In this document: positions 17,682 through 37,770 of the stretch, piece after piece
How positions within the stretch are numbered: position 1 is the first letter of the stretch
Layout: every line of letters starts with the position of its first letter
NCBI GenBank assembly: GCA_013290045.1
Contig: JABCYU010000003.1
Span: 1 to 44,410 of the forward strand
Direction: 5' to 3'
DNA: 44,410 bases
Source: Methanobacteriota archaeon
GTDB lineage: Archaea; Thermoplasmatota; Thermoplasmata; Lutacidiplasmatales; UBA184
The notes under the pieces: model-generated
What the model was told of the DNA's origin: nothing
The model's input: the letters and a program-made list of their open reading frames with translations, nothing else
Databases searched by the model: none
Program-made: the position numbers and the translations under genes

Positions 17682-17806
17682 CCCGTTGGGGGTGGGGGCC
17701 CCCCGGCGGCCGGCAACGTTTCCGACCTTGCTGTCGCGAGGCCGATTCTCCGAGTCCGCTTCAGAGGCGTCCGGTAGGTCGGTACGTGATTGCAGGGACC
17801 CCGTTC

Positions 17807-18032: not shown

Positions 18033-19052
18033 ATGTCGCAGTCCAGGACCCCGAGGGGGGCGAGGACTCAACGCCACCAGGGGCATCCCCGCTCGCTGCT
18101 GGGCGGGGGGTCGTCGAGCGCGAGCGGTTCCTTCCCGACCGGAGGTCATTCCGGGGTTGAGTTTGGGTTGGACAGGGCCCCGCCCCGAACCGAAGAATGG
18201 ACGTCGGAAGTCACCCGATTTCTGGCTGCCAAGGACAAGGAGAGTCCGGTCGGAGAGAACTGGAAGAGGCGGATGCGATGGGAGCTCTCCCGAGTTCCCG
18301 ACCTCCTCCAGAGGCTCAGCCCGGCGACGACGCCCTCGAGGGCGGCCGATCTGAATTCAGATCACGTCCTTGCTCTCCGGACGGGGATGGGTTGGGAGAA
18401 GGCCACTCTCGCTCTCCACTTCGCGGCCCTACGGCAGTTCCTCGCGTGGGCCGGGAATCCCATCGCGACCCGGAAGAGCGTTTGGAGGTTGCCGTCTGGA
18501 CAGTCGAGCCGGCGGAGGTGGTTAACGAAAGACCAGTTCGAACGGTTGCTCTCCGCCGCAGTTGGTCCCGCAAAGGCTCTCGTAGCACTGGAAGGGCTGA
18601 ACGGCCTGCGACGCGTAGAGGTCCTGCGCCTGCGGAAGAAGGACGTACTGCTGGAAGAAGGCTGTCTCCGTGTTCTGGGCAAGGGGAGGGACGGCGGGAA
18701 GTGGCGGACGATTCCGATGCATCCAGAGGTTCAGTCCTTCCTGTCCGACTTCGTCATCAAGCTGGATCCGGAAGCCAGACTCTTTCCGGTAAGTCAATCT
18801 GGCGCAGACGGGATGCTCCGCCGGGCGGTCGATGCGGCCGGCTTTGGGGGAGAGGGGGTCCGAATCTCCCATCATGACCTCCGGCGAACATTCGGCAGAA
18901 TGGCTCATCAGTCGGGAATGGATCTCATCCAACTGAAGAATCTCTTCGGCCACAGTTCGGTGGAGATGACGGTCCACTACATCGGGATCGACGCAGACGA
19001 GATGCGCTCTGGCCTAAACCGAATCAGGCTCGGAACGAGGCCAGGTGAATAG
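18033..19052 (+). CDS. Tyrosine recombinase/integrase (Xer-like)
   Basis: Complete catalytic set: GLRRVE (R), GKGR (K), HDLRR (HxxR), LFGHSS (H), TVHYIG (Y); the true start may be downstream. Confidence 0.95.
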   Translation: MSQSRTPRGARTQRHQGHPRSLLGGGSSSASGSFPTGGHSGVEFGLDRAPPRTEEWTSEVTRFLAAKDKESPVGENWKRRMRWELSRVPDLLQRLSPATTPSRAADLNSDHVLALRTGMGWEKATLALHFAALRQFLAWAGNPIATRKSVWRLPSGQSSRRRWLTKDQFERLLSAAVGPAKALVALEGLNGLRRVEVLRLRKKDVLLEEGCLRVLGKGRDGGKWRTIPMHPEVQSFLSDFVIKLDPEARLFPVSQSGADGMLRRAVDAAGFGGEGVRISHHDLRRTFGRMAHQSGMDLIQLKNLFGHSSVEMTVHYIGIDADEMRSGLNRIRLGTRPGE

Positions 19053-19319
19053 GGGTGACCATGGGAGATGGGTCCGTCTCCGACCGGGCCAGGAGTCGTG
19101 AAGCCTGCCACGGGCTCCTAGAAATCGTTCGTCACTTCCGAATCCACCGGATCCGGGAATCAGGTGCCCGCTGAACTTCGAGTTATCCAAGAGTGTCAAG
19201 ACTGGGTTGTGCGACGAAGAAGGCCGACGCCCAGGGCGGTGGGACGGGTTGGGGTGTCTACTGAACCGATGGCCAGGAAGTTCGTGGTGCGGGACGGTTC
19301 ACGCACCCAGACGCCCGGT

Positions 19320-19664
19320 TCAAGGTCGTTGGGGGCGGGTGCCCAAGAGTCGGAGCGCACGTCGGAGACCTGGATAGGTGGTCGCATCCCTGCGAACGAT
19401 TCGGATAAAGGCTACAACATCTCCTTCAACGACAGCATATATGGCCCGGTAGCCAGGATCGTTCGCTGCCGGTCGAATGTCAATACGGGAGAGTATGTGT
19501 GGTCCCTCAAGGGATTTGGTCTCGTATCCCCGAAGCAGGTCGGTGGGGGGAACCAGCGGGTGGGTTTCGAGTTCGTCAAGAGCCCACTCCAAGATGCGCC
19601 TCGCAGCGGGGGGCAAACTATCTCGCTGAAGGCCAGACCTTCCGAGGAAGAGGATACGGCTCAC
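19320..19664 (-). CDS. RelE/ParE-family toxin
   Basis: RelE-like size and pattern (L..HP...TK.LEG...SRI...GYRAIY.V...I.RR..TY), downstream of a small antitoxin. Confidence 0.75.
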   Translation of the reverse strand: MSRILFLGRSGLQRDSLPPAARRILEWALDELETHPLVPPTDLLRGYETKSLEGPHILSRIDIRPAANDPGYRAIYAVVEGDVVAFIRIVRRDATTYPGLRRALRLLGTRPQRP

Positions 19665-19672
19665 TTGCGGCT

Positions 19673-19906
19673 CTATCTACTCGATCGAGACCGTCGGCTG
19701 ACTCTACGAGGAACTCCTTTGACCCTTCCTTTCCGGAAATCCTCGAGGACCCGATGAGCGTGCTTTGCATCCTCTCGGTCCATCTCCCGCTCGAGAAGAT
19801 CGAGCAGGAATGCGTCCCAGTTCTGGGCCCCCGTCTTGAACTCCTGAAGAACTCGGAGAGTCGACGTGTGGACCGGCACGCTCGTAATCGGGTCGACGGC
19901 CGACAT
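19673..19906 (-). CDS. Putative antitoxin (RHH-like; T.VPV...T...L...KT...WD.FL..L)
   Basis: 77 aa; paralogous to 42526-42762; upstream palindrome ATCATT-N5-AATGAT at 19922-19938. Confidence 0.75.
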   Translation of the reverse strand: MSAVDPITSVPVHTSTLRVLQEFKTGAQNWDAFLLDLLEREMDREDAKHAHRVLEDFRKGRVKGVPRRVSRRSRSSR

Positions 19907-20186
19907 GGCATGGCTCAGGACATCATTGTATTAATGATTTTCACCAATATCGAGATCGCGTCCTTCCGACCTCTCGGCCCTATGCCACGAAAGCCCGCAC
20001 GCCCTCAGCTTGCCGCATCCCAGGAACGGTCACTGCTCAAGGTTGTTCTCCGGCGAGGGGCGGCACGCCCATAACTCGGCAAAAGTCTCCGACGCCCTCG
20101 AGAACTCTTGCTTCGATGCCATCCGACGGGCGTCGTTCAGGCATTGCTCCGAGGTGGCAAGCCTGGATTCAACCTATTCGCTTGCG

Positions 20187-20206
20187 TGTGCAACTCTCGC
20201 TGCACC
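20187..20206. repeat. Palindromic core site TGTGCAA-CTCTCG-CTGCACC
   Basis: Intergenic consensus variant. Confidence 0.7.
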
Positions 20207-20280
20207 TCTCCCCACTCCCAGGGGCCCCGTCGTCGGAGAGTTCAGTCGGAGTTGCGCCTAGGTGCCGCCTGCGCCCGACA

Positions 20281-20300
20281 GGTGCAATGGGGGTTGCACC
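20281..20300. repeat. Perfect palindromic core site GGTGCAA-TGGGGG-TTGCACC
   Basis: Exact 7-bp inverted arms around a 6-bp spacer. Confidence 0.8.
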
Positions 20301-20361
20301 GCACGCGAGAGGTCCGTCCGAACCGGCGTCTTTAAGGGATGCCACGTAATACGCGTAACAG

Positions 20362-20568
20362 ATGGCCCTCGAGGTCCTCTACAGTCGACATGCAAGGCAA
20401 AGGATGGTGTTGCGGGGCATTTCGAGCGATGAGGTCGAGATTGCCATTCGGACGGGTGCGAAGTCCCGACAAGGCCCCAGAGTCGTCGCGGCGCATAGCT
20501 ACTTCGAAGTAGTCTATTTGGTAAGGGGGCGCAAGATTATCGTGATCACGGTGAAACCAAGATGGTAG
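20362..20568 (+). CDS. DUF4258-like (RelE-fold) toxin
   Basis: YSRHARQRM..RGIS..EV..AI..G; VITV; TTTAAG box at 20331-20336. Confidence 0.8.
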   Translation: MALEVLYSRHARQRMVLRGISSDEVEIAIRTGAKSRQGPRVVAAHSYFEVVYLVRGRKIIVITVKPRW

Positions 20569-20906
20569 CGAAGGCAGAGAAGTGCCCGGTCTGTGGGAAG
20601 GGTAGGCTGAAGCCGGCAATGGTCCATGAGGAGATGTTCGGGGTGGAGCTCGGGAACTACCCTGGGGAGGTGTGCTCCAATTGCGGGGAGACATTCCTCA
20701 CGACCGAAAGTATGCGGGCCATTGAAGTGCGCGCCAGGGAGTTGGGCCTCTGGGGTCTCGCCTCCAAGGTCAAGGTCGCAAGATCGGGCAATTCGCTCGT
20801 AGTTCGAATCCCGGCTCCCCTAGCCCAGTACTTGAGATTGAAGAAGGGCCAGGAAGTCATGGTCAGCCCTGAGAAGGAAAACCGGCTCGTGCTAGAACTC
20901 GCCTGA
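20562..20906 (+). CDS. YgiT/MqsA-type Zn finger plus AbrB/MazE domain antitoxin
   Basis: CPVCG...VCSNCGETF; KV.RSGNSLVVRIP..LA..L.LK.G.EV; overlaps the toxin gene. Confidence 0.85.
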   Translation: MVAKAEKCPVCGKGRLKPAMVHEEMFGVELGNYPGEVCSNCGETFLTTESMRAIEVRARELGLWGLASKVKVARSGNSLVVRIPAPLAQYLRLKKGQEVMVSPEKENRLVLELA

Positions 20907-20926
20907 GCCAACCCATCGGGGAGGTG

Positions 20927-20946
20927 GGTGCAAGGACAATTGCAAC
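20927..20946. repeat. Palindromic core site GGTGCAA-GGACAA-TTGCAAC
   Basis: 20 bp after the TA stop codon. Confidence 0.8.
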
Positions 20947-21339
20947 CCTCGGCGCAAGAGAAGCGGAATGTCCCTGCCTCCGCAGCGCAAGGTACCAGAA
21001 TTCGTGCAACGCTTGTTGGGCGGTTTGGAGAACTCATCTCGCGAGCTCCTGAAGGCACTTATCGAGACTCGGATCGCACCCGATCGCCGCGAGAAAGACT
21101 AGTCTCCCGGCGGCCCTTGCCCGCACAGTCATTGCGGTCACCCTCTTCAAGCGCTAGTCCTTTCGATCGCATGGGGTCGGTGAAGGGGAGTCAAGAGGAA
21201 GGGACCGAAACCATGCCAGCCCACCGTGTCACCTGCGTAGCTTCGAGATGGTGCCGGACCCTTTCGACTCCTAACGGACTAGAGTTCCATCCCAAGTCTC
21301 GGACCGCTTATCAGCCGCCAGCCTCTACGGTGACCCCCC

Positions 21340-21963
21340 ATGGAGCACCACGCCAGCGCAATTGAGATCCTCGAACGCGCACGCCAAACGTTGGCAGTTG
21401 CTGAGAAGGGCGTACAGGACCTCAGGGGAAAGGACCCGAGCCGGTGGTTACCCGGACTTCTGAACGTCGCCGTTTTCGGGCGAGCAGTAACCAATATTCT
21501 CCAGAATCTTAGGTCCGTAGACCAAAAGTTTGACCCATGGTATGCTCCGAAGGTACTCGAGATGCGGGCGGACAAGCTGCTCCGGTTCTTCTACGAGCTC
21601 CGAACTGAGGTGCTCAAGACGGCTAGACGCGTTCCTACCGCGCACAGAACCCATATCAAGCACCTTGAGCTCCCAAAAGACCTCGCGAGGATGGGACCGA
21701 AGCCTCCCGGAACGACCGGTTTCTTCATCGGAGATTCGGCGGGCGGCTCCGGATGGTTGGTGAGGCTGCCCAATGGAACGCAAGTGCCGTATTACGTGGA
21801 TCTCCCGGATGACATCGGGGTGGTCGACATGACTATTAGAGGCGCCCCCTTGCTGCATCTGGGACAACCTGTTTTGGATGATTCGGCCGCGTCGCTCTCC
21901 TCTTTGTATGTGAACTACCTCCGGAATCTCCTTGACGATGCAGACAAGGTGTTCGGGCATTGA
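21340..21963 (+). CDS. Hypothetical protein, possibly HEPN-like helical domain
   Basis: 207 aa; 'FGRAVT..LQ...F..WY...FF.ELR..VLK' pattern; no canonical RxxxxH. Confidence 0.7.
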   Translation: MEHHASAIEILERARQTLAVAEKGVQDLRGKDPSRWLPGLLNVAVFGRAVTNILQNLRSVDQKFDPWYAPKVLEMRADKLLRFFYELRTEVLKTARRVPTAHRTHIKHLELPKDLARMGPKPPGTTGFFIGDSAGGSGWLVRLPNGTQVPYYVDLPDDIGVVDMTIRGAPLLHLGQPVLDDSAASLSSLYVNYLRNLLDDADKVFGH

Positions 21964-22217
21964 TCCCTGACTCCGCATTCTTGATGGAGACGTTCAGTAC
22001 GACTCGGGATTGCCATGACCCTACCAACGACAGGACTACGAGCCACGAAGGGAACCAAGCCTGCCATGAAGACAGGATCAAGAGGAGTCGGAGTGTTTGG
22101 GTTTACCCCGAGCCTAAAGCGATCTCCATTCGAGCCTTACCCAGTGCATCGCCACTCAGCCAAGTCGCGGACTGCATGGAACGAATGCGCCCGACCTTGC
22201 CCGTCGCGGACTGAGCC

Positions 22218-22781
22218 ATGAAATCCCGTGCCAGCGGAACAATCGCGGTCGCGAGTCGACAAGTGGAACTGTTCGCCCGAGAGTGGAGCCTCCAGCCGCA
22301 TAGATGGTGGTACGAGAGAGATGTAGCGGCTGAGATTTCACGGAGAATCTCGGACGCGCTCGGGCCGCGGCGGAGTAAGGTTCCATTTGATGACTTGGAA
22401 ACCTATTCCGAACCTCATTGCAGTTGTGGTCATGCTGGACGCGTAAGGATCGATCACCCGATTTATGGATGGGACAAGGTACGATACCCGAAGCGACCCG
22501 ACATCGTGATTCACCCAGACGACCCCGAAGATCCTTACCCCTGGGTCTGTGAAATCAAGGTTGGATCAACGCCTCGAAAGGACTTGAACGGGGTAAGCGA
22601 TGAGGAGAAGGTCCTACGTCTTCTGGGTGGTCCCCGCCCCGTCGTCCTAGCGGGGACAGTCCTGGATATGCGGATTCCAACCCCACCCCGACTTAGGGGG
22701 TCGGTGTCCCGTTCGTTCTCCCTCGGGGGTCGTCTAACAAAGTACTTTGTAGAAGCAAGGCAGCCAAACCCAAATGTCTAG
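22218..22781 (+). CDS. Putative PD-(D/E)XK nuclease
   Basis: YERD helix, RPDIVI and CEIK motifs. Confidence 0.6.
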   Translation: MKSRASGTIAVASRQVELFAREWSLQPHRWWYERDVAAEISRRISDALGPRRSKVPFDDLETYSEPHCSCGHAGRVRIDHPIYGWDKVRYPKRPDIVIHPDDPEDPYPWVCEIKVGSTPRKDLNGVSDEEKVLRLLGGPRPVVLAGTVLDMRIPTPPRLRGSVSRSFSLGGRLTKYFVEARQPNPNV

Positions 22782-22862
22782 CTGGAGTTTCCTTAAAGAT
22801 TCCCTGGCCAGCAACCGAGCCATCAGGCACCTGCAGCTTGTTGGTCGGCGTCTCTCTTTGAA

Positions 22863-22925
22863 TGTGCATCGGAGGTTGCGCACACCATGCTTCGACCGAC
22901 GTCCACTTGCAACGCCACTTGCAGC
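22863..22925. repeat. Tandem core sites TGTGCAT-CGGAGG-TTGCGCA (22863-22882) and CTTGCAA-CGCCAC-TTGCAGC (22906-22925)
   Basis: Intergenic consensus variants 43 bp apart. Confidence 0.7.
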
Positions 22926-23292
22926 TTCCCCAGACCGAATTGGGGTCGGCGAGCTGGGTTCTGGGAGGGGGAACTCCATGAAAATTCAAACCCTCGGCCC
23001 GGTGACCCGGCGGTGTTGCCCGGCGTGATCGTTCCGGAATTCGTCGTACACGCGCCGCTTCGCACGATCTGACCCGGCTTGAAGCCGATGCCTGGACCGC
23101 CGGCGGCTGTTAAACCTCTCGCGTCGAGGTAAGTCGCCGCCTGCGCCCCCATCGCCCTTGGCAACGAACGGGTTTCTCGCTCTGCCGGACAAGGCTCGTT
23201 GTCTTTGTTGATTGTCCCTCGGGAACCCTGCGTGGGCGTCACATCTTGGATCGTCGGCAAAGTCTAAGACTGAACTGAGACTGCCGGTCCCG

Positions 23293-24003
23293 ATGCGAGT
23301 TGAAGAGTTCTTCCGGGCACTGATTCCGCAAACAGCCCCGATCAACATGGGGTTCTACAATTGCTCGAAGGACCCGAGCGTCCCGAAAACGGCGGCATTG
23401 CTAAGGGAATCCGATCTCGACTGCCTTGTTCTCTGTGGTGGTAGGATGGCGGAAATGTACCCCAGGGTCATGGAGGGCCTTGGCAGCCGACCACGGTTCC
23501 CGGTCTTCACCTTTCTCTCAGACATCGACTCAGTCGTCGCGGGTAGCGACGGCATTTTGTTCGGCTACGTTCTCAATCAGTACCCGCAGGTAATCACCCC
23601 CATACACGCGGCGGCGGCTCTTAGTGTCCGGGACAAAGGGGTGAGTCATGTTGGCGTAGCATGCTTGGAGGTCGAGCCATGCCGGGCGACTCTGGGGGGC
23701 TGGCCCCGATCACAACACGTGATTTCTATGCGGGACATCGACGAAGCGGTCCGACTCTCCTCGGTGGCCCGCCTCGCAAGGAACCTTCTGATGGTCATCG
23801 ACCCGGGGGTGGATTCTGTGGCCGAACCCTCGCTAGTCAAGGCGATTTCTTCGATAGCCCGCTTGCCGTTGATCGTCACCGGCGGCAGACGACTCGGGAG
23901 TCAACAATCTGAGGACCTCGTTGGCGCAGGCGCGCGGGGGATAGCTCGCTATTTCGAGAATTCGGAGGACATCCGTGAATATGTCGAAGGGCGGGTCAGA
24001 TGA
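23293..24003 (+). CDS. Divergent geranylgeranylglyceryl-phosphate synthase (GGGPS/PcrB)-like TIM barrel
   Basis: Colinear with group II GGGPS (M.VEE, D...LCGG, PV..F, D.ILF..VLN, LEVEP, PLIVTGG, V.AGA, ENS..IRE.VEG), but canonical DPDK, YLEAGSG and VTGT motifs are altered. Confidence 0.75.
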   Translation: MRVEEFFRALIPQTAPINMGFYNCSKDPSVPKTAALLRESDLDCLVLCGGRMAEMYPRVMEGLGSRPRFPVFTFLSDIDSVVAGSDGILFGYVLNQYPQVITPIHAAAALSVRDKGVSHVGVACLEVEPCRATLGGWPRSQHVISMRDIDEAVRLSSVARLARNLLMVIDPGVDSVAEPSLVKAISSIARLPLIVTGGRRLGSQQSEDLVGAGARGIARYFENSEDIREYVEGRVR

Positions 24004-24862
24004 ACCTACCGACAATGAAGGCGATGAGCGCAATCAGCATCCCGTACTTCATTAGCGACTCGGGGCGTCGCGGAGTTCCCTGGAAGAGTACGATGACTGA
24101 GTAGAGAAAAATCGCGTCCGCGACAGCGACGATTTCGAGATAGGTGATGCTAACGATTCCGGACAGAAAGAAAGGGATCGGACTTAGCAAGACGGCACCC
24201 AAGACCATCGACGCAGAAATCCCTCGAGCAAAGGGAAGGCCGTATGTCCGCGGAATCGTCTTGCGGTCGACATCTCCCTCGACGTCGCTTATATCCTTCG
24301 CGACCTCGCGTCCTAGTATCGAGAGGAATGAAAGCGTGGAGAAGAAAAGAACCGGAGTAAGATTGCCAACGATCGAACCACCGAATAAGAACAGAAGACC
24401 GGTCTGGCCGGCGATTACAACATTGCCGACAGACTTCAGTTTCTTCGCGGCAAACTCGTAGCACATCTGAATTGCTATGGCCAGGATTACGATCGCGAGT
24501 GCAACGCGAGGTAGGAAGATCGCGCCAGCGATGGCGATTGCAAATAGGGAGATCGCAATCGCGAGCGCGACTCGCGGACTCAGTGCCCCTCTGGGAAGGG
24601 TTCTATCCGGTCGATTGATTCGGTCAACCTCTATGTCCAGGTAGTCATTCAGCGTATTCCCTGCGCCAACGCTGCAGAAGACAACCAGGAAGCATAGGCA
24701 GACGTCGAGTAGGATGCTCGTGGTAACCTTCCTGCCCGCCGCTACGATTAAGCCCGCTACTCCCCCGAGCCCGGCTAACCCCGCGGTGCTCAGTCGAACG
24801 AGAGCCGTGCCAGCGTGCAGCTTCGAACCGAAAGAGGGGCGCTTCTCATCAATACCCGTCAT
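23996..24862 (-). CDS. UbiA-family prenyltransferase, DGGGP-synthase-like
   Basis: GNTLNDYLDIEVDRINRPDRTLPRG and REVAKDISDVEGD Asp-rich motifs; about 8-9 TM segments. Confidence 0.93.
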   Translation of the reverse strand: MTGIDEKRPSFGSKLHAGTALVRLSTAGLAGLGGVAGLIVAAGRKVTTSILLDVCLCFLVVFCSVGAGNTLNDYLDIEVDRINRPDRTLPRGALSPRVALAIAISLFAIAIAGAIFLPRVALAIVILAIAIQMCYEFAAKKLKSVGNVVIAGQTGLLFLFGGSIVGNLTPVLFFSTLSFLSILGREVAKDISDVEGDVDRKTIPRTYGLPFARGISASMVLGAVLLSPIPFFLSGIVSITYLEIVAVADAIFLYSVIVLFQGTPRRPESLMKYGMLIALIAFIVGRFI

Positions 24863-24867
24863 ACGAA

Positions 24868-25755
24868 CTAAAATTCGTACACTTCGGGGCCTGTGGGACT
24901 GAACAGTACCACTCGCTTCGTGGGGTTGCGCCGAAGTCTCCGTCGAGTGAATTCCAAGGCCACCTCCCGAGCGGAGCGGATGCGCACTTTGGCATCTCCC
25001 TTGTAGTCCATGGAGTAGTGAGTCCCCTCGTTGGCGACCTTGCTCCGCAGTGCCAAAGTCACGAGCCAGACCAGTTGTTCGTCTGTCCAGTTCTGGCTGG
25101 AAGAACCGTTCTGGACGTAGACGAACGTGTTATCGTCGAGTTTGTCGAAAAGCCACATGTCACCATTTACGTAACCCTTAGTGTGTCGGACGATGACGTT
25201 GGCTTGTGGAAGCGCATGTTTGGTGGGATGATATGCGTCCCAGCGTGTCGAGTAGTTCATCAAGAAAAATACCGTCAACTTGGAGGCCCTAGGAACCGAA
25301 GTCAAGGTTTCGAGGCTTCGAAGTTCTCGCTGCAGGTCGAGTGCCCGAGAGCCCTTCGGGTCTAGACTTTCTTCGTGATTACCGATGAATCTCAGAGCGA
25401 CGCCGTGGTCGGTCGCATAAGAGCCGTAGATTCCCAGGAGCTTCGTCAATCCTTGGTATATGTCATGGTAGTTGGACCGGAGCTTGTGTCTAGTGTGGAT
25501 GACGTTCACGTAAAGATTTCTGACCCCAAGCTGTCGAAGAATCTCAATCAACCTGACACAGAAGATACCTCCGTCGACGTAGGCATCGGCCCCTTTGAGC
25601 AGAGATGATGTTCGGGTCCCGTCAGTCATCTCGTAGATGACTAGCTCTTGAACCCGGGCCATAGGATCATCGATCCTGAGGCGGGACGCGGCCTCAAGGA
25701 ACTGCCGGCGTGTGGCCGACTCTACCGGTAGGGCAACCGATTCCTTGCCTGGCAT
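24868..25755 (-). CDS. Divergent cis-prenyltransferase (UppS-fold) protein
   Basis: DGTRT (cf. DGNRR), LGVRNLYV, VALRFIG, FLMNYSTR (cf. LNYGGR), LPQANVIVRH (cf. PDLLIRT); ATG at 25755 preferred to 26193; ends 5 bp before the UbiA start. Confidence 0.75.
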   Translation of the reverse strand: MPGKESVALPVESATRRQFLEAASRLRIDDPMARVQELVIYEMTDGTRTSSLLKGADAYVDGGIFCVRLIEILRQLGVRNLYVNVIHTRHKLRSNYHDIYQGLTKLLGIYGSYATDHGVALRFIGNHEESLDPKGSRALDLQRELRSLETLTSVPRASKLTVFFLMNYSTRWDAYHPTKHALPQANVIVRHTKGYVNGDMWLFDKLDDNTFVYVQNGSSSQNWTDEQLVWLVTLALRSKVANEGTHYSMDYKGDAKVRIRSAREVALEFTRRRLRRNPTKRVVLFSPTGPEVYEF

Positions 25756-26303
25756 CCCGTTCCTGCCTCGGAGCGTTCCTTGTATATGGCCTCGCCAGTC
25801 GGAAGTCTGCCTTCCGCCCCGGGGTATCACGGTAAGTCGCGAGGAAATGCTTCTCCTCTCTAAGCTCTCGCGCCGACCGAGTTTTAGCCCCCGTTCCCTT
25901 GCCGAGGGAGCTAGTCCGCGGTGTCCGCAAGATCGCGCACAAGACCTGAATCCGACCACGCCCTCATCAGCGGAAACTCTCGATTCCAGGACGCGCGTCG
26001 TGTCATGGAGTTCCTCGAATACTCCGCTCGCCGGGCCGTTCGAGTTCTCGGGCCCTGGCGGTGTCGGACTCAATCTCAAATACCAGGAGCATGTTCCGGC
26101 TTCGCATCCAACCCGATTTCCGGAGAGCCAACGGCAGGTCAGAGAAGCATTGAACTTCGTAGCGACTGCGGACGAGTTGACCGCACCCAGCATCCGGTAT
26201 ACATCGATTTGATTCTACCCCTATCCGACCGCTGTTCTGGTGGGTACCTGGGAGACCAGAGTACGACGGTGCCGGGGCCGGTAGCTCTGAGGAAGAGGGA
26301 AAA

Positions 26304-27242
26304 GTGAACCCGGCCGCGGGAGTATCGTCGAAACCGCTCCGAGGGATCCTGAAGGCATTACTGGTGAGGAGCTGGACGACTCCGATCAAGGACCCGGAGG
26401 GGCTCGGCATCGCGAAGGTAGCCGACGGCATTACGCTCGCTGTGGTGGGGATTTCCGCGGCGCTCCTTGGTAGCTTCGAGTACACCCAAGCTCCCCACTA
26501 CCCTGTCTGGTTCCTCCATTGGGCTTTGTTCGAGCCGCAGAGTGCGGGGTGGTACGCCGCAATCGCCATCCTCGGGACCCTGACACTCGCCATTTTCTAC
26601 AAGGCATGGAAGTACTATTCAGGGGCGCCAAATCAGGGCTCCAAGGATGGAATCTTCAAAACCGAGATTCTTCAGGCGAATGCGCTGGAAGTGATCATCG
26701 ACGCCGTCATCGCCGCCCTAGGGGGTCTTCTAATCTCTCTGGCCATCTTCGTCCTTCCAGTAGCGTGGTTCGTCTGCTTCGCCGTATACTCATTCTTTGT
26801 TCTCCTGAGATCGGTGGTCACTCTGATTCGCCCCCGACTCGCTCGTCACCATTATCGCAATGAGATCGACACTGATGTTCTTCAGCGTGTGTGGATTGAT
26901 AGTGTAACACGCGGGGTGTATCCGCCTCGGCGACCTGGAGATACCAAACCACCCATAGAGATTCGCTACATCTTCTCGGGGTGGGTCGTTTCGCATGCCA
27001 TTTGGGCGGGGTATGGGGCCGCCGCTGCTGCCGTCCTCTGGTTTGTCCGAATACCCGAACTGTGGTCAATCGCGACCCTCTACGTGTTACTGGTGGTGCT
27101 AATCGCGGGCCAGTTTGGTCTCTCGGAAACCTCGACGCGGTGGGGAATGAAGCTATGCCACAGCGACTCGTGGAATTCCAGATTTGGACTCGAAACTTCG
27201 GATTCGGTCGCGACCATCGCGTTCCAAGAAGGTATTGGTTGA
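26304..27242 (+). CDS. Multi-pass membrane protein of unknown function
   Basis: 312 aa with about 6 hydrophobic helices. Confidence 0.75.
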   Translation: MNPAAGVSSKPLRGILKALLVRSWTTPIKDPEGLGIAKVADGITLAVVGISAALLGSFEYTQAPHYPVWFLHWALFEPQSAGWYAAIAILGTLTLAIFYKAWKYYSGAPNQGSKDGIFKTEILQANALEVIIDAVIAALGGLLISLAIFVLPVAWFVCFAVYSFFVLLRSVVTLIRPRLARHHYRNEIDTDVLQRVWIDSVTRGVYPPRRPGDTKPPIEIRYIFSGWVVSHAIWAGYGAAAAAVLWFVRIPELWSIATLYVLLVVLIAGQFGLSETSTRWGMKLCHSDSWNSRFGLETSDSVATIAFQEGIG

Positions 27243-27579
27243 TCTAATCTCGCCTGTGTTTTGGGCCGCAGCAGATGTTCCCAGCATCATGCCTCGAGGT
27301 AGACCATCAACCTTTGACAACCCGATGATTTTGCATCTAGTGGTTACACTCCACCAGGTATCCCGCCAGACCTTTGGCAAGGTGATGCTGCTAGTCGAGG
27401 CCCCGAAGCAGTACGACCCCTCAGGCGGGGTTCGAGGGATACCGCGTGGATTTGCGGGCACACCATTGTCAGACATTCCCGCTGCCCTTTCCTCCCTCTT
27501 GCCTCGAACCCACTGGAGGGACTCAGCTCTCGCGATGAGGCATGTGGGACTAGGAGTCGACGGCGTGGAGGGGAATCCC

Positions 27580-27599
27580 GGTGCAGTCGTCCTTGCACA
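27580..27599. repeat. Palindromic core site GGTGCAG-TCGTCC-TTGCACA
   Basis: Intergenic consensus variant. Confidence 0.7.
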
Positions 27600-27740
27600 T
27601 TCGAGCGGAGCGTGAACCCGCCGAGGCTTCATCTTCGCCCTCGAGATTCGACCGTTCGTTCGAATCTCATCAGGCGCGCGGCGAGCTCCCACGATTGCAG
27701 CACCGAACGGAGTCGGTCATCGATCATCGGGGCTGAGGAG

Positions 27741-27760
27741 GGCGCAATCACGCTTGCAAA
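27741..27760. repeat. Palindromic core site GGCGCAA-TCACGC-TTGCAAA
   Basis: Intergenic consensus variant. Confidence 0.7.
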
Positions 27761-27883
27761 CACGATGGCCCTCTTTGCCTCGATTGCCTTCGACCCGTTC
27801 TGGAGAACGCAAGCACCCTTCGGAGACCTAAAGCCTGCCGGCGATTGCTCCGGTAATCGGGTCGACACCCCGCCTACCGTAGA

Positions 27884-28807
27884 ATGGATACGACAGCGCT
27901 AGACAGCTCGAAATCTAGGCTACGCTCGCTTCGCCTCGAAGCCGAGTCGATACTCGCGTTGCTTGCCGGTCAACCGAGCTCCTCCGACACCAGAACCACG
28001 GCCTCCGACCTCGTCGCGTCAGAGTTGGGCGGGGCCTTCACTGATTATCTGTTCGGCACGCGACGCCTGGGCAGAATTGTGGGGAGGAAGTTTTCCCAAC
28101 AGAGTCGGAGGAACCAACGGGCCCAGTTGGAGAGCTCCGCCAGCTCCAGGATATCGAGTGTTCTCGCACAACTCGAGAATGAGGTTATCGCCGTCAAGGG
28201 CGAAATCGACGCTCGCACCTTCCGATCGGTTCGTTCGGCGATAGGCAGGGCGAGGACTCTTTCCAAGGCGAGCTCGGCCGCGCGTGCATGCCTACGAATC
28301 GTTGGCCACTTGGAACAGGCTAAGCCGCAGGCGAGAAGGGCGCCGAAACCGCCGTTTAAGAGATCCGAACGTGTCAGCTCGCTGGGCCGCTTTGATCTCA
28401 GGGCGTTCGAGCAGGAATTGAGGCAGTTTATCGCTGGTCAATTGTCGGCGAGACTTCCGGATTGGTGGGAGAAAAGGATTCCTCAACTAGCAAGGGAACA
28501 GGCGGAGCGTAGGATGCGACAACGCGACAGGACTTGGCCTTGGTCCAAGAACAATGATCACGCGCCCATTCACTTCGTTGACTTCAAGGACTACGCTGGG
28601 ATCATCACCGAAGACAGGAATTGGGAGGAGATATTCAAGCCATACTTTGGGGACAAGGAGGTGATTCGCGTCAAACTTCGAGAGCTCGAACCTATTCGCA
28701 TCGACCTCGCGCATGCAAGGGACTTGTCACGAACCGACGAAGTCAAGTTACGCCTTTACGTCGGCGAGATAACTCAGATGATCCGGGGAGGTGCCCCGCC
28801 GAGCTAG
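27884..28807 (+). CDS. Swt1-like HEPN domain protein (putative RNase)
   Basis: FEQELRQFI...WW..RIP...DF.DY..II...NW..IF...F...L.ELEPIRIDLAH (RxxxxH). Confidence 0.85.
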   Translation: MDTTALDSSKSRLRSLRLEAESILALLAGQPSSSDTRTTASDLVASELGGAFTDYLFGTRRLGRIVGRKFSQQSRRNQRAQLESSASSRISSVLAQLENEVIAVKGEIDARTFRSVRSAIGRARTLSKASSAARACLRIVGHLEQAKPQARRAPKPPFKRSERVSSLGRFDLRAFEQELRQFIAGQLSARLPDWWEKRIPQLAREQAERRMRQRDRTWPWSKNNDHAPIHFVDFKDYAGIITEDRNWEEIFKPYFGDKEVIRVKLRELEPIRIDLAHARDLSRTDEVKLRLYVGEITQMIRGGAPPS

Positions 28808-28834
28808 CCTTTCGACCGCGTCCGAGGGCGGCGA

Positions 28835-28896
28835 GTTGTAATCGGGCTTGCATCGGCCCTATCGGTCAGTCCCCAATGTGCAACCAGACTTGCACC
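28835..28896. repeat. Tandem core sites GTTGTAA-TCGGGC-TTGCATC (28835-28854) and TGTGCAA-CCAGAC-TTGCACC (28877-28896)
   Basis: Between convergent genes, 42 bp apart. Confidence 0.75.
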
Positions 28897-29223
28897 CACC
28901 TGGATCCTTACGGGCCCTTCGGGTGGTGGTAAGAGGTCGCCTTGCACTTTCGCCTCGACCAACCCCCCCCGGGCCCCGCCCAAGGGTCGCAGGAGAACAG
29001 AGTACTGGGGCCGGGAAGGTCTCGCCTGTTGGCTCGAGCCCGACTCCACTGAAACCCCAGAGATCGGGTCAGGAACAGGCGCGAGCAGACGAGCCGGAAC
29101 CGAGGGCCGACCTGAATCGTGGGTGGCCGGGGCGGCTAAACCGGACGAGTTCAAGTCCGCCTGAACCTTCTGACGAGGGGCATCGAGATGACGACGGTTC
29201 CCAGCTGGCTGCTGCCGTGGGAG

Positions 29224-29649
29224 CTAAACCGGGCATCTCATGTCGAATCTCCGGCAGAGGTCGCGAAGCCCTCCCGCCCACATCTCCGCCTTCTGCGCAG
29301 CGGCTGACTTGAAGTCGGCGTCTATTGGGACCCGATCTATCAAATGCGTGTTCCTTGCCCGCTCCTTCCCATCGAGCCGCTGGTGTCGCCTCACGCTACT
29401 TTCTAGCATCGGGACCAGAGCTTCCGCCTGACGTTGATCGAGGTTGAAAACGTCGTCGTACCTGGCAAAGCCACGCGTGGAAACGTTCGGGAAGTATTCG
29501 GCGGTGAAGTCCGAGTCATCATGGCAGTAGTACTGTAGGGCTTGGCGAATGACTCCCGCGGTGATCGGAGTGAGCAGACGGCCCCTGGGGGTCGGATCCA
29601 TGGGTTCAGATGCAGGCGCAGGCCCGACGGACGGCTTCCCAGCGCTCAT
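29224..29649 (-). CDS. Hypothetical protein translationally coupled to the upstream RHH protein
   Basis: ATGA overlap at 29646-29649; protein-like composition. Confidence 0.65.
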   Translation of the reverse strand: MSAGKPSVGPAPASEPMDPTPRGRLLTPITAGVIRQALQYYCHDDSDFTAEYFPNVSTRGFARYDDVFNLDQRQAEALVPMLESSVRRHQRLDGKERARNTHLIDRVPIDADFKSAAAQKAEMWAGGLRDLCRRFDMRCPV

Positions 29650-30194
29650 TTCCTTTGACCTCCGCGGCCAGTCGTAACTTGGCCGGCCTTGGTTCGCCGC
29701 GATTCCTGTTCAGTCAATGCCTCGACGAACTTCTTGGCGAGGACGAGCGACTCGACCTCCTCGCGACGACGGGATTTTTCCGCTTCTATCGCTGTGAAGA
29801 AGTTCTTCAGGATCTGGTTCGGCCTCAGGAAGCTCACTGATGCGGCCTTGACCGAAACGTTGTACACGGTGTCATCGTCATCGGACCGGGTAGGATCTTC
29901 GCAAAGGAGGCCATCTACGCCGTAGGAGACGGGAACTGATTCTTGGATCGCCCCGTCCCAAAATGTTCCAACAACGACCTCGCAGTGAAACTTCTGAATG
30001 AGGGGATCCATGCTCGTGAGTAGTTCCTCGTACTGCGACCGTGTCGCTCCCCTCTCCAGGCGCTCTGGATCGAAGGTGTAGCCCTTCAGAATGCGTTCAG
30101 TCAGCTCCGAGATGTTCAGGCCAAGCTTCTTGGCCGCCTCTACGGTGTCGCCATCAACGGTCAGCGTCAGCTTCTGCTTAAGTTCGGGAGGCAT
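29646..30194 (-). CDS. CcdA/DUF6364-like RHH domain protein with long C-terminal extension
   Basis: KQKLTLTVD.D.VE.AK.LGLNISEL.E; ATG at 30194 preferred. Confidence 0.75.
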   Translation of the reverse strand: MPPELKQKLTLTVDGDTVEAAKKLGLNISELTERILKGYTFDPERLERGATRSQYEELLTSMDPLIQKFHCEVVVGTFWDGAIQESVPVSYGVDGLLCEDPTRSDDDDTVYNVSVKAASVSFLRPNQILKNFFTAIEAEKSRRREEVESLVLAKKFVEALTEQESRRTKAGQVTTGRGGQRK

Positions 30195-30244
30195 ACGTGG
30201 GGTAGCACGTGCCAGGATATAATGTACACGTGTTCGCACACGTG
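30194..30244. promoter_or_regulatory. Two pairs of (C/T)ACGTG boxes flanking a TATA-like TTATAT; putative RHH operator
   Basis: Boxes at 30194, 30206, 30227 and 30239 (12-bp spacing within each pair). Confidence 0.55.
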
Positions 30245-30444
30245 CCTCACACAAACCAGCCCCCGCGTGGGAGCCAGTCCCATCCGACCTGCGCGAGTCC
30301 GGTCGCAGACCACCCTTCGAGCATCGTCAGGTCGATGGAAGGGCACCTGCAGCTCGGACCGGGCAGGTTGTGGGGGTAGCAACCAAGTAAGGAACGGGGG
30401 CAAAGTTTTCCGTGGCACCCTGGATTACCCTCGAAGCCGTTCGG

Positions 30445-31410
30445 CTACGCCCAAGCTCTATCGAATTCGGCCAAGCGCCACTTGAGGGCCTCCTGGGCGG
30501 GGAAATCTTCGGACCGGCGCGGGAGATTCGCCAATGTCTTCCCCTCCCAGTCCAGGACATGATTGGCAGCAGCGGAGCTCCTGAATTCGGGGTCGTCCGC
30601 GATCCGGACGCGAAGATCCTCATCAGGCGTCCACCCAAACTCGTCGAACAATGCGTGGTGGTTCTGGCAAAGGAGCAATCCGTTTCGGACGTCGGCGATG
30701 GTCCCCCGATCCTTGATCGGAATGATGTGGGCCGCCTCCAGTCCGACGCTTCTTCCCCGTACTCGGTAACCCAGCGTGCAAAGGCTGCACTTGCCTCGGT
30801 AGAGTTCCCGGATGACCGTTGTAAACCGGCGATCTCGCTGGATGCGGAGAGACTCGACCAGACTCGGTGACTCGACCTCGAAACGTTGGAAGACTGGGGT
30901 CACCTGCTCGGGAACCGGCAAGGCCGTCCAGTCCAGAGCCTCCCCGCGGAGGACGAAGTGGGTCCCGTCGAATCCTTCGACGTAAGCGAGTCCCATTACC
31001 TTGTACGTCGAGTTCCCAGTTGGGTCACTGACCTGGCGGAAGACGCCCACGGGGGTCTTGTCGGCCTGGCACTGAAGCAGTCCTCGGTTGGTGTGGAGCT
31101 CTTCGATAGACTTCCCCTCTCGCTCCTCGGGGGAATACCGGTAAGTCCAACTGCCGTCGGGATGCCAATACAGGTCCTCGTCGGAGTAAGGTCCCTTCAG
31201 GGTCTGTCGTACCCAGAGGGCGTGAGGGGATCCAGCAGGCTTGTAGATCCCGACTTGAGTCTTGAAGCCTGGAATCCTCGATCGAAGTTCCGCGCTCGTG
31301 AAAGACTGACCGAAGCTTTCTCGAATCTGAAGGAGTGCTTCACGAAGGCGGAGGTCCACGACTCTGTCGAGAGGGTCGCTCACCTTGATGGTGAGCCGCC
31401 GATCCCACAT
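30445..31410 (-). CDS. SRA/PUA-like plus HNH endonuclease (putative modification-dependent, type IV restriction)
   Basis: N-terminal GIYKP...L.VRQT..GPY.D...Y.Y...N.GL..C...PVGVF..Y.V.GL..V; C-terminal CSLC...LEAAHIIP...NGLLLCQNHHALFD. Confidence 0.85.
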   Translation of the reverse strand: MWDRRLTIKVSDPLDRVVDLRLREALLQIRESFGQSFTSAELRSRIPGFKTQVGIYKPAGSPHALWVRQTLKGPYSDEDLYWHPDGSWTYRYSPEEREGKSIEELHTNRGLLQCQADKTPVGVFRQVSDPTGNSTYKVMGLAYVEGFDGTHFVLRGEALDWTALPVPEQVTPVFQRFEVESPSLVESLRIQRDRRFTTVIRELYRGKCSLCTLGYRVRGRSVGLEAAHIIPIKDRGTIADVRNGLLLCQNHHALFDEFGWTPDEDLRVRIADDPEFRSSAAANHVLDWEGKTLANLPRRSEDFPAQEALKWRLAEFDRAWA

Positions 31411-31443
31411 CCAAGTTTCGGGCTAGCTCGGCTGCCCGTGAGA

Positions 31444-31463
31444 GGCGCATCGGAGGTTGCACC
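31444..31463. repeat. Palindromic core site GGCGCAT-CGGAGG-TTGCACC
   Basis: Sits in a 64-bp intergenic gap; central 14 bp identical to 22866-22879. Confidence 0.75.
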
Positions 31464-31474
31464 CCCCGTCGAAT

Positions 31475-32203
31475 CTAGGGGACTATACGGCCGAGCAGGG
31501 CTTTCCGGCGAGTCGCGGCGCTTGCAACATAATGTGTTTCGAAGGCAGAGACTACCCCGTACCCAAGGCCAAGGGCAAGTCCGTCGATTGCACCGAACGC
31601 CCGGAACGCCACCAACGCAGAGATGACTGCGCACAAGCCGAGGATAGGCCCCACAGCAAACGCGGTCGTGTTTAGGAATCTGTGTCCTAGAACTTGCTTA
31701 CGGCTGCCCTCGACCCCATCGGGTTCGCGCAGCATTCCCCACTTCCGCTCGTAGTTCAGAAGCTCGTTGCTCGAAAGTAGATTGTTGATCTTCTCCTCAT
31801 CGTCGTGAGCGGCTGCCCCTTGGGTGGTGTTGGTGTCGAAGAGGTGGGCAACTAGGTGAAACAGCGTCAAGACCAGGAGGGGAAGCAGAAGAACCAATTC
31901 GGATGTCCCAGTAAGGATGGAGTAGCCAAGCAGGAGAAAGATCCCGGACAGGAAGATCTGAACGTAGGTCGAGTAGAGCACCTGGTTTGAGAGAATTTCA
32001 GATCGACGTTGCCGGTATGACTCCAGTACTGCCTCAACCTTGAGGCGAGTCACTTCGTGATCGTACGAAGGCGACTCCGGAAGAGCTTCCCAAGGAGTGC
32101 CTTCAGTGGCTCTGGACGCGCCTTCGGGGTTCGTTTCATCCAGGATGGTGGCAGTTGCTAGAGGCCGAATGAGCGCCGAGGCCGTACTGGCGCCTCCCTT
32201 CAC
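31475..32203 (-). CDS. Four-TM membrane protein ('E.Y...R.EI' type)
   Basis: LESYRQRRSEI followed by two TM segments, EEKIN linker, then two TM segments; start uncertain. Confidence 0.65.
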   Translation of the reverse strand: MKGGASTASALIRPLATATILDETNPEGASRATEGTPWEALPESPSYDHEVTRLKVEAVLESYRQRRSEILSNQVLYSTYVQIFLSGIFLLLGYSILTGTSELVLLLPLLVLTLFHLVAHLFDTNTTQGAAAHDDEEKINNLLSSNELLNYERKWGMLREPDGVEGSRKQVLGHRFLNTTAFAVGPILGLCAVISALVAFRAFGAIDGLALGLGYGVVSAFETHYVASAATRRKALLGRIVP

Positions 32204-32502
32204 GACCCTCTCCCCGCTGCCGCTCCGGCGGTCTGACCCGACGGGACGGGCCTGTTCGACCAGACGCGGCCCCAGAAGAAGTTACCCATAGCCCCCCTGT
32301 TCTCGAGAATGTCGTCGGAGAATGACCGGGCCCTGTCGGACGCCGGGCGACAAGGACGCGGGCGTCTCGACGGGCACTCAGTCGCCGAGTTTAGAGGGGA
32401 ACTGAGGTTGTACACGACGCTCTCTCGGAGAACGAGGATCCGACCGTTTCGATCCCTCTCCGAGCCGGTATATACTTGGCGCTAACTAGGCCCCATGCGT
32501 CA

Positions 32503-33381: not shown

Positions 33382-33419
33382 GCGCAATCCGATTCGGCCA
33401 CGCCCCTCGTCCTCGGACC

Positions 33420-34406: not shown

Positions 34407-34491
34407 GAACGATGAGAGCTGGTCAGCCTGAGAGGAGGGTATAGCCTGAACGGGTGACTCGGGGAACCACCATCCGAGGTCCGTCCTAGTA

Positions 34492-34511
34492 GGTGCAATC
34501 AGCATTTCAAC
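34492..34511. repeat. Palindromic core site GGTGCAA-TCAGCA-TTTCAAC
   Basis: Between the divergent MTase and REase genes. Confidence 0.6.
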
Positions 34512-34533
34512 CACGGCCGGCTCGATCCTAAGG

Positions 34534-35676: not shown

Positions 35677-35787
35677 TGGATCAACCATGAAGTGGTCCCG
35701 CGTAAGGCTGGGGAGGTAACTTACATCGAAATGCGGTACATGACTTCATAAAGCGGCCCGGGTTGGAGGAAACGCCCTTCGGAGCAA

Positions 35788-37368: not shown

Positions 37369-37447
37369 TGAGGCACCCGCGAGGGAACCGGATGAATTCT
37401 CCTTGGAACCAGGATCTCCGACCCAGGTAAGAAAGACTCGACTCAGA

Positions 37448-37467
37448 GGTGCAAAGCGGATTGCAAC
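37448..37467. repeat. Palindromic core site GGTGCAA-AGCGGA-TTGCAAC
   Basis: 80 bp after the GHKL-HEPN stop codon. Confidence 0.8.
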
Positions 37468-37770
37468 TCCATGGCGAAGAACGACGCGTCCCGATAGGGT
37501 ACGCCCGACCTCCGCTCTGAGCCCGGGTCCCAGTGGTGCTCCGATCATCGCGGGGGAGGCTCCTCGGAGTCCCGGTCACGCACTGAGAGGAGACGGGCGA
37601 AAGGGAACCGTTGCCCCCACCCTCAACGGGTGCGTTTTCTATGAGGCCCCCGAGGTCCACATCAGACACTTCCGTTCAACCACGACGGATAGGTCTTAAT
37701 CAGTGGTAAGCCTGACACGAAGTCGGCCCCTTATCCGTGGTCGGACGATCGCTAACGTCGAGGGTTCATC

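Follow-up and report, generated by a model that had tools for sequence, protein, structure and literature searches.

Why should a soil archaeon that already encodes the full canonical set of enzymes for its ether lipids carry additional prenyltransferase genes on what looks like a mobile island? The question is posed by a 44,410-nucleotide stretch of DNA, referred to here as the window, which is contig C3 (GenBank JABCYU010000003.1, assembly GCA_013290045.1) of a member of the Lutacidiplasmatales in the phylum Thermoplasmatota, a 2.23-Mb archaeal metagenome-assembled genome (MAG) of 183 contigs that is 89.5% complete (G000). Four genes with intact reading frames, designated A to D, span positions 23293 to 27242, inside a low-GC stretch. 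Their products include counterparts, in sequence or in fold, of geranylgeranylglyceryl phosphate synthase (GGGPS) as well as digeranylgeranylglyceryl phosphate synthase (DGGGPS), the enzymes that form the ether bonds of archaeal lipids:

23293..24003, + strand: gene A, a divergent PcrB/GGGPS-fold protein of 236 amino acids (structure model; weak NF003198 score)
23996..24862, - strand: gene B, a DGGGPS-type UbiA prenyltransferase of 288 amino acids (PF01040, NF009523, NF009521)
24868..25755, - strand: gene C, a cis-prenyltransferase-fold protein of 295 amino acids from an unnamed archaeal family (AlphaFold model, homologues)
26304..27242, + strand: gene D, a multi-pass membrane protein of 312 amino acids (start uncertain)

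C and B are transcribed in the same direction with a 5-bp gap between them (24863 to 24867), A and B converge with an 8-bp overlap (23996 to 24003), and D diverges from C. This geometry, a cis-prenyltransferase/UbiA operon running into a GGGPS-like gene, had been described in a first-pass annotation of the sequence, and the positions of the open reading frames (ORFs) bear it out. The adjacency of three prenyltransferase folds claimed there is likewise real (PcrB/GGGPS in A, UbiA in B, cis-prenyltransferase in C), and the labels “degenerate GGGPS” and “Rv3378c-like odd cis-PT” proved right when structure models were built and searched with Foldseek. A different conclusion has been reached about function. 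The first-pass annotation envisaged an exotic side pathway to a nonstandard metabolite; elsewhere, however, the C+B combination appears as the core ether-lipid pair of many archaea without a canonical GGGPS, so that the likeliest chemistry is the ordinary formation of geranylgeranylglyceryl phosphate and digeranylgeranylglyceryl phosphate with a different first enzyme. On balance, the evidence somewhat favors the view that the family of C is a nonhomologous replacement for GGGPS built on the cis-prenyltransferase fold. C and B would then have reached this genome by lateral transfer, as one copy of a module of two enzymes for both ether bonds of archaeal lipids.

The longest ORF at the C locus extends from 24868 to 26193 on the minus strand. 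Given that the coding signal (low GC content at second codon positions and high GC content at third positions) sets in at about residue 150 and that homologues are about 295 amino acids long, C is assigned to 24868 to 25755, with the true start at 25755. The AlphaFold model of this protein, based on a 37-sequence alignment, has a predicted local distance difference test (pLDDT) score of 91 and a predicted template modeling (TM) score of 0.91. In a Foldseek search, it gave 197 PDB matches at E ≤ 0.001, and the 50 chains listed are all cis-prenyltransferases. The best match (E = 4e-8, approximately 295 columns) is Rv3378c, a tuberculosinyl transferase/tuberculosinol synthase, an atypical enzyme whose acceptor is a compound other than isopentenyl diphosphate (IPP), or water, and which, like C, lies outside typical sequence models. 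The two proteins are otherwise far apart, with approximately 13% identity, a TM score of only 0.52 to 0.56, and a root mean square deviation (rmsd) of 7 to 8 Å; their organisms, gene contexts, and acceptors (for C, the proposed sn-glycerol-1-phosphate [G1P]) are unrelated, the C family being archaeal and linked to genes for DGGGPS and glycerol-1-phosphate dehydrogenase (G1PDH). Superposition with VIA-align gave Z scores of 20 to 21 to DHDDS and UppS, with rmsd of 2.2 to 2.6 Å over 195 to 215 residues (for Bacillus subtilis UppS, Z = 20.2 and 2.3 Å over 203 residues), and Z scores of 18.5 to MM_0014 and 18.1 to MA1831.

Canonical cis-prenyltransferases carry the motifs DGNRR and RTSGE, and their catalytic Asp lies in the N-terminal D-G-N-x-R loop. 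C has the core fold of UppS and DHDDS (PF01255), and its D-G-x-R and R-H-T-K-G stretches recall these motifs. The residues Asp45, Gly46, and Arg48 (in the sequence MTDGTRTS) are invariant in the family and follow strand 1 in the model, in a region that the hhalign comparison did not cover.

Two further fold matches of C, MM_0014 (PDB entries 7cav and 7cc3) and MA1831 (7vqd), are archaeal cis-prenyltransferase folds with noncanonical reactions. They are ordinary PF01255-type proteins of approximately 220 amino acids, whereas the C family forms its own lineage of longer and much more divergent proteins; MM_0014 and the C family have in common that the C-terminal RXG motif is missing. According to Okada et al. 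(PMC8131916), MM_0014 of Methanosarcina mazei, an organism that has a canonical GGGPS, O-prenylates glycerol and small alcohols in vitro, and no enzyme of the cis-prenyltransferase family was known for O-prenylation. The MM_0014 reaction shows that this fold is able to present a glycerol hydroxyl to the prenyl donor.

At E ≤ 0.001, C has 97 homologues, nearly all of approximately 295 amino acids; those that carry a name are all “hypothetical,” and a single one (P0024) has a precomputed PF01255 match. They come from Methanoperedens, Syntropharchaeia, Hydrothermarchaeales, Altiarchaeales, Thermoplasmatota, Micrarchaeota, and Aenigmarchaeota. The family alignment has a mean column identity of 45% and 26 invariant positions, among them Asp45, Gly46, Arg48, His90, Arg93, Asn95, His191, Lys193, Arg263, and Glu264. 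The family tree requires 7 changes of taxonomic label, where the minimum is 6, which fits a vertically kept core gene. C itself groups with P0002, the only near relative it has (69% identity), and the pair stands isolated on a long branch with a stem of 0.94. In the other 35 aligned members, 54 positions are conserved to 90% or more, and C matches the family at 52 of them; at the remaining two, which are otherwise invariant, it carries K249M and E255A, and P0002 is altered at both (K249M, E255T). As judged from these residues, the island copy of C is probably active, and its specificity may be altered.

Gene neighborhoods were compared by clustering all ORFs within 3.5 kb of the C-like gene in 55 loci from species-representative genomes; a further 38 loci, many of them short, come from metagenomes, which brings the total to 93. 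A DGGGPS-type UbiA gene is found near the C-like gene in 29 of the 55 genome loci, at a distance of 81 bp or less in 20 of them, mostly in convergent but sometimes in codirectional orientation. The gene for G1PDH (NF002022, 406 bits) is a neighbor in 14 of these loci, and in 10 of the 14 it lies immediately upstream of the C-like gene on the same strand; in DPANN and some other loci, the C-like gene comes just after it. The metagenomic loci include 16 with UbiA and 9 with G1PDH, and on one 568-kb contig (L109) the order G1PDH, C-like gene, UbiA is found on a single strand. The UbiA neighbor is usually the main DGGGPS candidate of its genome: it ranks first in G005, G007, G035, and G038, four of the five genomes whose UbiA genes were all surveyed, and in the Methanoperedens genome G005 it is the only DGGGPS-like UbiA, while G045 has weak DGGGPS candidates only (87 bits). 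In G238, which belongs to the same class as G000, the UbiA gene adjoining the C-like gene is of the DGGGPS type (180 bits) and again the best candidate of the genome. This pattern indicates that the C-like gene fills the slot expected for a GGGPS gene. Across the 93 loci, C-like genes are located among genes for G1PDH, DGGGPS, UppS, and ribosomal-protein-like and Ndk-like proteins, not among defense genes.

Another conserved neighbor was seen in 13 Methanoperedenaceae loci (L009, L011 to L013, L020, L022 to L025, L027, L030, L031, and L038), in which a membrane protein of approximately 246 amino acids, with no NCBIfam match, is encoded divergently 57 to 147 bp upstream of the C-like gene. Ten of these 13 loci, and one locus from Aenigmarchaeota, also have an NAD-dependent epimerase/dehydratase-like gene approximately 0.8 kb upstream.

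The phyletic pattern points in the same direction as the neighborhoods. In whole-genome searches, full-length PF01884, the PcrB-type GGGPS domain, was found in only 2 of 50 carriers of C-like genes, G002 (127.8 bits) and G050 (90.5 bits); the same-class carrier G238 (93% complete) has none, which makes 2 of 51 carriers besides G000. Of the weak partial PcrB matches, eight were inspected and proved to be TrpC (2), HisA/F (5), and PyrF (1), and a profile that included A-like sequences detected only C-terminal phosphate-loop fragments in 5 well-assembled carriers. UppS is present in 48 of the 51 carriers and G1PDH in 48, so that the C family is not a replacement for UppS and the rest of the lipid pathway is in place. 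In control searches, the Halobacteriota had a strong GGGPS match (best E value of 4.6e-25 or lower) in 147 of 151 genomes and a C-like gene in two, G005, which lacks GGGPS, and G107, in which the gene is broken. The locus in G107 (L094, G107:C11:71569-72341), a genome with a canonical GGGPS, has the C-like gene in two frames with an in-frame TGA and looks like one in decay. Among the Thermoplasmatota, GGGPS was detected in 186 of 201 genomes and C-like matches in six, namely, G379 (450 bits, without GGGPS), G000, and four with weak matches. The latter look like a separate, divergent C-like subfamily (L157 to L160, from G355, G387, G429, and G370; 26 to 28% identity to C, 135 to 154 bits). A set of 14 Thermoplasmatota genomes (80 to 98% complete: G253, G256, G288, G291, G300, G311, G317, G326, G335, G358, G362, G374, G378, and G398) carries no C-like gene; 13 of these also lack any PF01884 match, and G300 has a partial one.

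For one carrier lineage, the lipids themselves have been described: “Candidatus Methanoperedens” makes archaeol, hydroxyarchaeol, and glycerol dialkyl glycerol tetraethers (PMC6581649). Hence, GGGPS activity must exist in that genus.

B scores 120 bits against PF01040 (cut-off, 34), and its top two models are those of DGGGPS, NF009523 (212.6 bits) and NF009521 (211.7 bits), with full-length matches. These scores are below the NCBI equivalog cut-offs (269 and 296), as are those of the DGGGPS of all 25 relatives; the 212 bits of B equal or exceed the values for the host genus's own DGGGPS (171 to 188 bits). The Asp-rich motifs of DGGGPS, NDxxDxxxD and DxxxD, are both recognizable in the translation of B, as NDYLDIEVD and DISDVEGD. 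B is only 40% identical to the host DGGGPS encoded on contig C42, from which it also differs by its position in the UbiA tree: it falls inside a clade of DGGGPS genes that are partners of C-like genes, on a branch of 1.31 and with moderate support (89 to 94 in the SH-like approximate likelihood ratio test [SH-aLRT]), and the C42 enzyme lies within the clade of its genus (SH-aLRT, 100).

The first-pass annotation had asked whether separate housekeeping genes exist, and they do:

1456..2223 and 2220..3233 of contig C42 (L001, G000:C42), - strand: host housekeeping DGGGPS and GGGPS genes, overlapping by 4 bp

The host GGGPS is canonical (167 bits), and its overlap with the DGGGPS gene is operon-like; two genomes of the same genus (G201 and G211) have these two genes 78 to 79 bp apart on one strand. 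UppS is encoded on contig C134 (271 bits) and G1PDH on contig C40 (467 bits). The C gene, by comparison, is absent from all 24 genomes of the same genus and from 6 others of the same order, and is present in 1 of 10 others of the same class. DGGGPS matches number two in G000 and one in each of the 15 same-genus genomes searched. The cassette is therefore accessory and laterally acquired, in agreement with the first-pass annotation: the host has its canonical set, its congeners have no C gene, B falls outside the host clade, and the GC content drops where the island begins. With the host pathway intact, the module either is redundant or modifies the lipid output. The features that place it on an island are as follows:

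18033..19052, + strand: tyrosine recombinase (integrase), PF00589, 64 bits, placed at the GC break
19000..38000, no strand: low-GC island with the cassette and with toxin-antitoxin-like, HEPN, HNH, and type II restriction-modification genes (composition, Pfam, PADLOC)

The composition profile shows a GC content of 0.63 to 0.71 across the first 18 kb and of 0.56 to 0.62 at approximately 19 to 38 kb, and the drop from about 65% to about 58% coincides with the integrase gene. The other island genes encode MazE/AbrB-like and CcdA-like proteins, a Swt1-type HEPN protein (PADLOC model PDC-M34B, 63 bits), an HNH protein, two type II methyltransferases, a DpnII-like endonuclease, and a GHKL ATPase. 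Short contigs that are 100% identical to parts of the region from 21000 to 29500 were found in two soil RNA (metatranscriptome) libraries from different studies, 16 pieces in X2 and 3 in X3, scattered over 21 to 29 kb with intergenic DNA included. The same island sequence thus occurs in other soil samples; as evidence for transcription, these contigs are weak, given that DNA carry-over is possible.

The remaining two genes of the cassette are A and D. The longest ORF at the A locus spans 23212 to 24003, and the likely start at 23293 gives 236 amino acids, the length of the recorded protein. A has no match in Pfam, PF01884 included, and stays below the family cut-offs of NF003198 (31.4 bits versus 247) and TIGR01768 (12.6 versus 113). 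Among 1.84 billion representative proteins, it has five relatives at E ≤ 0.001, the best of which, P0099 (26% identity, E = 8e-19), itself passes PF01884 with 72.7 bits. The model of A (pLDDT 86.9), whose input alignment contained canonical GGGPS sequences, superimposes on the GGGPS structures 5ndy and 4mm1 in Foldseek with a TM score of approximately 0.8, and the top 27 among the matches listed are GGGPS or PcrB (TM scores of 0.7 to 0.82). A thus has the same TIM-barrel fold as GGGPS/PcrB (PF01884; PDB entries 4mm1, 6nke, and 2f6u) but, unlike these enzymes, fails the family model and lacks their conserved loops; the enzymes, in turn, catalyze the very step proposed here for C, the fold of which is unrelated. 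In GGGPS, G1P is bound by the loops YxEAGSGA, GGGI, and GT. In A, YLEAGSGA is replaced by VIDPGV--DS and GGGI by GGRR, and GT is missing (-AR-). Several of these derived changes are common to A and its relatives P0099 and P0104: the 2-residue deletion in the EAGSGA loop, the replacements of Tyr by Val or Ile and of Glu by Asp, the change of GGGI to GGRR or GGRK, and the loss of GT.

In three Methanosarcinales MAGs, the accession number of the P0099 protein directly precedes that of a C-family protein (P0004 cluster). The adjacency was judged from consecutive accession numbers and from the equal lengths of the longest recorded contigs (8374 nucleotides for the NCBI pair and 14608 for the JGI pair) rather than from DNA; by this measure, a remodeled PcrB-fold gene beside a C-like gene recurs. 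A metagenome scan with P0104 for contig DNA with P0099/P0104 beside P0004/P0109 confirmed none of 156 pattern matches, and in tblastn searches with A and P0099 to P0104, none of the 55 genome and 38 metagenome loci of the C family yielded an A-like gene. Co-occurrence of the trio, which the first-pass annotation had made a test of its proposal, is therefore a matter of pairs: C with B is frequent, the A-like/C-like pair is known from the three MAGs, and the full set of A, B, and C was not found elsewhere.

For D, no match was detected in Pfam, NCBIfam, or PADLOC; a word-indexed search of a large protein collection returned only D itself, and the best score in a protein atlas (0.85) was under the lead threshold. 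Clear, if distant, relatives of D nevertheless adjoin C-like genes in G238 (L162, 5519 to 6394), in which the C-like, UbiA, and D-like genes follow one another in one operon, and at L038 (6918 to 7799). From the recurrence of A-like and D-like genes near C-like genes, A and D appear to be accessory components of the module that are rarely present.

The following mechanism is proposed. Geranylgeranyl diphosphate (GGPP) would be bound at the allylic-donor site of C through the invariant D45-G46-x-R48 loop and Mg2+, and G1P would be held where IPP normally sits, its phosphate gripped by the conserved basic residues Arg190/His191/Lys193 and Arg263. Attack of the glycerol hydroxyl on C1 of GGPP would follow, resulting in transfer of the geranylgeranyl group (O-prenylation), and the second chain would be added by B. 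In G000, the module would have arrived on the integrase-associated island together with the remodeled PcrB-fold protein A and the membrane protein D. Elsewhere, the C family would stand in for the PcrB-type GGGPS in Methanoperedens, GoM-Arc1, Altiarchaeales, Bathyarchaeia, some Thermoplasmatota, Aenigmarchaeota, and other DPANN archaea.

A number of observations weigh against GGGPS activity of C and its family. C has no match in Pfam or NCBIfam at E ≤ 0.1 or among PDB sequences; unlike UppS and DHDDS, it does not match PF01255, and it lacks the C-terminal RXG of homodimeric enzymes, its family ending in GPExYEF. Comparison of the family with canonical UppS by hhalign gave a probability of 55% over 52 columns, and the tie to cis-prenyltransferases is a structural one only, seen in the predicted model. 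Okada et al. considered O-prenylation by MM_0014 probably nonphysiological (PMC8131916). The complementarity of C and PF01884 is imperfect, with a C-like and a PcrB-type gene together in G000, G002, and G050, and the divergent C-like subfamily, which presumably has a different function, coexists with canonical GGGPS and has no UbiA or G1PDH neighbors. Of the 201 Thermoplasmatota genomes, 13 showed neither enzyme, and all four sampled members of family f49 are among them; the absence of PF01884 therefore does not by itself point to C. The incompleteness of MAGs may account for part of these 13 double negatives; the f49 cluster suggests a further route to geranylgeranylglyceryl phosphate or a GGGPS too divergent for detection. 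The genomes are mostly MAGs, and related ones are not independent samples. Finally, the redundancy in the host, the long branches of B and C, and the K249M and E255A changes mean that the island copy may have drifted to another substrate.

These points lend some weight to a less probable account, in which the C family makes or modifies another isoprenoid, GGGPS activity comes from some unrecognized protein, and the cassette yields a nonstandard lipid, as the first-pass annotation proposed. Candidate products, at a similarly subordinate level of likelihood, are a prenyl diphosphate that is irregular or short, a head group carrying a prenyl chain, or, as with Rv3378c, a prenol released by hydrolysis; the product would feed UbiA or decorate lipids. 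The nearest structures of C are indeed atypical cis-prenyltransferase folds (Rv3378c, lavandulyl-type synthases, MM_0014, and MA1831), retention of the cassette alongside the canonical pathway of the host would make sense if its product were a different one, and the two substitutions in C, the coexistence of the divergent subfamily with GGGPS, and the 13 genomes without both enzymes, which make another GGGPS substitute possible, can all be accommodated. This account, however, leaves unexplained why 49 of the 51 carriers have no PF01884 when 48 have UppS and G1PDH, and why the C-like gene is found between the genes for G1PDH and DGGGPS, as in DPANN loci and on L109. Furthermore, the UbiA gene next to the C-like gene is no extra paralogue but, in 4 of 5 genomes and in G238, the leading DGGGPS candidate.

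It is rather improbable that A to D are decaying, functionless cargo, B and C being what remains of the core lipid genes of a donor and A a degenerate GGGPS. The long branches (1.31 for B and 0.94 for the C/P0002 stem), the lost loops and scarce relatives of A, the lack of homologues of D in the large protein search, and the full canonical set in the host would be expected of such cargo. Yet the four frames are intact, only two of the 54 conserved positions are changed in C, and neither Asp-rich motif has been lost from B; the oddities of A are common to P0099/P0104, which have a C-like neighbor in the three MAGs, and D-like genes lie near C-like genes in G238 and at L038. Conserved oddities of this kind argue for selection, and the identical contigs in the two soil libraries add a weak point on the same side, DNA carry-over being possible. 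Least probable, and in fact very unlikely, is the suggestion in the first-pass annotation that the cassette is an antivirus device that remodels membrane lipids or a receptor. It draws on the neighbors alone, namely, the HEPN gene (PDC-M34B), the HNH gene, the two type II methyltransferases, the DpnII-like endonuclease, and the toxin-antitoxin-like genes; A to D have no match to PADLOC defense models at E ≤ 0.001, the C-like genes of the 93 loci elsewhere sit amid housekeeping lipid and core genes, and islands commonly mix unrelated cargo.

Of the other features of the locus, the first-pass annotation had drawn attention to two “core sites” bounding the cassette:

22906..22913, + strand: left “core site” CTTGCAAC, an 8-mer only
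27592..27599, + strand: right “core site” CTTGCACA, an 8-mer only

The 8-mers are indeed there, and the motif CTTGCAMM, which has 10 matches in the window against 2.7 expected, has none between them; an extra CTTGCA hexamer is located at 22918. Past the 8-mer, the two have no wider likeness, with only one other common 8-mer within 80 nucleotides on either side, no direct repeats flanking the cassette were found, and no evidence was found that these are recombination sites. The sites of common structure that an integron-type gene cassette would have at both ends were not found; the integron-type core motif GTTRRRY is scattered through the window without pattern. A composite motif, TGCAA-N4-5-CTTGCAC(C), occurs three times, at 20928 to 20944 (- strand), 28879 to 28895 (+ strand), and 42158 to 42174 (- strand), whereas 100 shuffles gave an expectation of 0; the motif was defined only once the copies had been seen. 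The first two copies, both of which contain CTTGCACCCACCT, form an inverted pair around the ORFs from 21340 to 28807, among which are the HEPN gene and those of the cassette.

No tRNA gene or Rfam family was found in the window, and no att repeats or island ends could be identified in it. A 72-nucleotide imperfect inverted repeat (72% complementary; 17806 to 17877 and 42828 to 42899) flanks the low-GC island. Within the island, the type II restriction-modification cluster at 32476 to 35676 comprises two methyltransferases, one Dam-like of the D12 type and one of the N6/N4 type, together with the DpnII-like endonuclease, and is followed at 35788 to 37368 by the GHKL (HATPase_c_3) ATPase gene, which has no PADLOC match. 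A 127-nucleotide exact direct repeat is found at 40936 to 41062 and at 44284 to 44410, the second copy being the contig end. Its first copy overlaps the start of a DDE_3/HTH transposase gene (40988 to 42106), and the repeat probably reflects two copies of an insertion sequence, which would account for the assembly break.

GGGPS is regarded as belonging to a set of three universal markers for lipid synthesis in archaea; it has been used in “lipid divide” phylogenies and to judge the membrane autonomy of DPANN and uncultured archaea. No literature linking GGGPS with the cis-prenyltransferase fold or Rv3378c was found in a search that left subscription journals and supplements outside its scope, so that an earlier description is possible. 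Likewise, no literature was found on the absence of GGGPS in Methanoperedens, two Methanoperedens lipid papers being silent on GGGPS, or, as judged from titles and abstracts, on a lack of GGGPS or an analogous enzyme in general, and an alternative GGGPS is not mentioned in the passages of two reviews or surveys retrieved by keyword (PMC9385802 and PMC6431249). For the broadest reading, the evidence is evenly balanced: the C family could be the overlooked GGGPS of a large part of the Archaea, mobile also as a small module with DGGGPS that sometimes brings along a remodeled PcrB-fold protein and a dedicated membrane protein. The lineages so served, with the same even balance, could include ANME-2d, alkane oxidizers, Altiarchaeota, Bathyarchaeia, some Thermoplasmatota, and many DPANN archaea.

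If this is true, the first committed step of archaeal membrane-lipid synthesis would have been invented a second time, independently, and the cis-prenyltransferase fold would gain a physiological role in O-prenylation. The lipid autonomy of DPANN, Altiarchaeota, Bathyarchaeia, and ANME-2d would be misjudged wherever a survey records GGGPS as missing, and GGGPS trees would tell only part of the history. The island copy in G000 shows that the module is transferable, which bears on how membrane chemistry spreads, and offers a compact two-gene part for the engineering of ether lipids.

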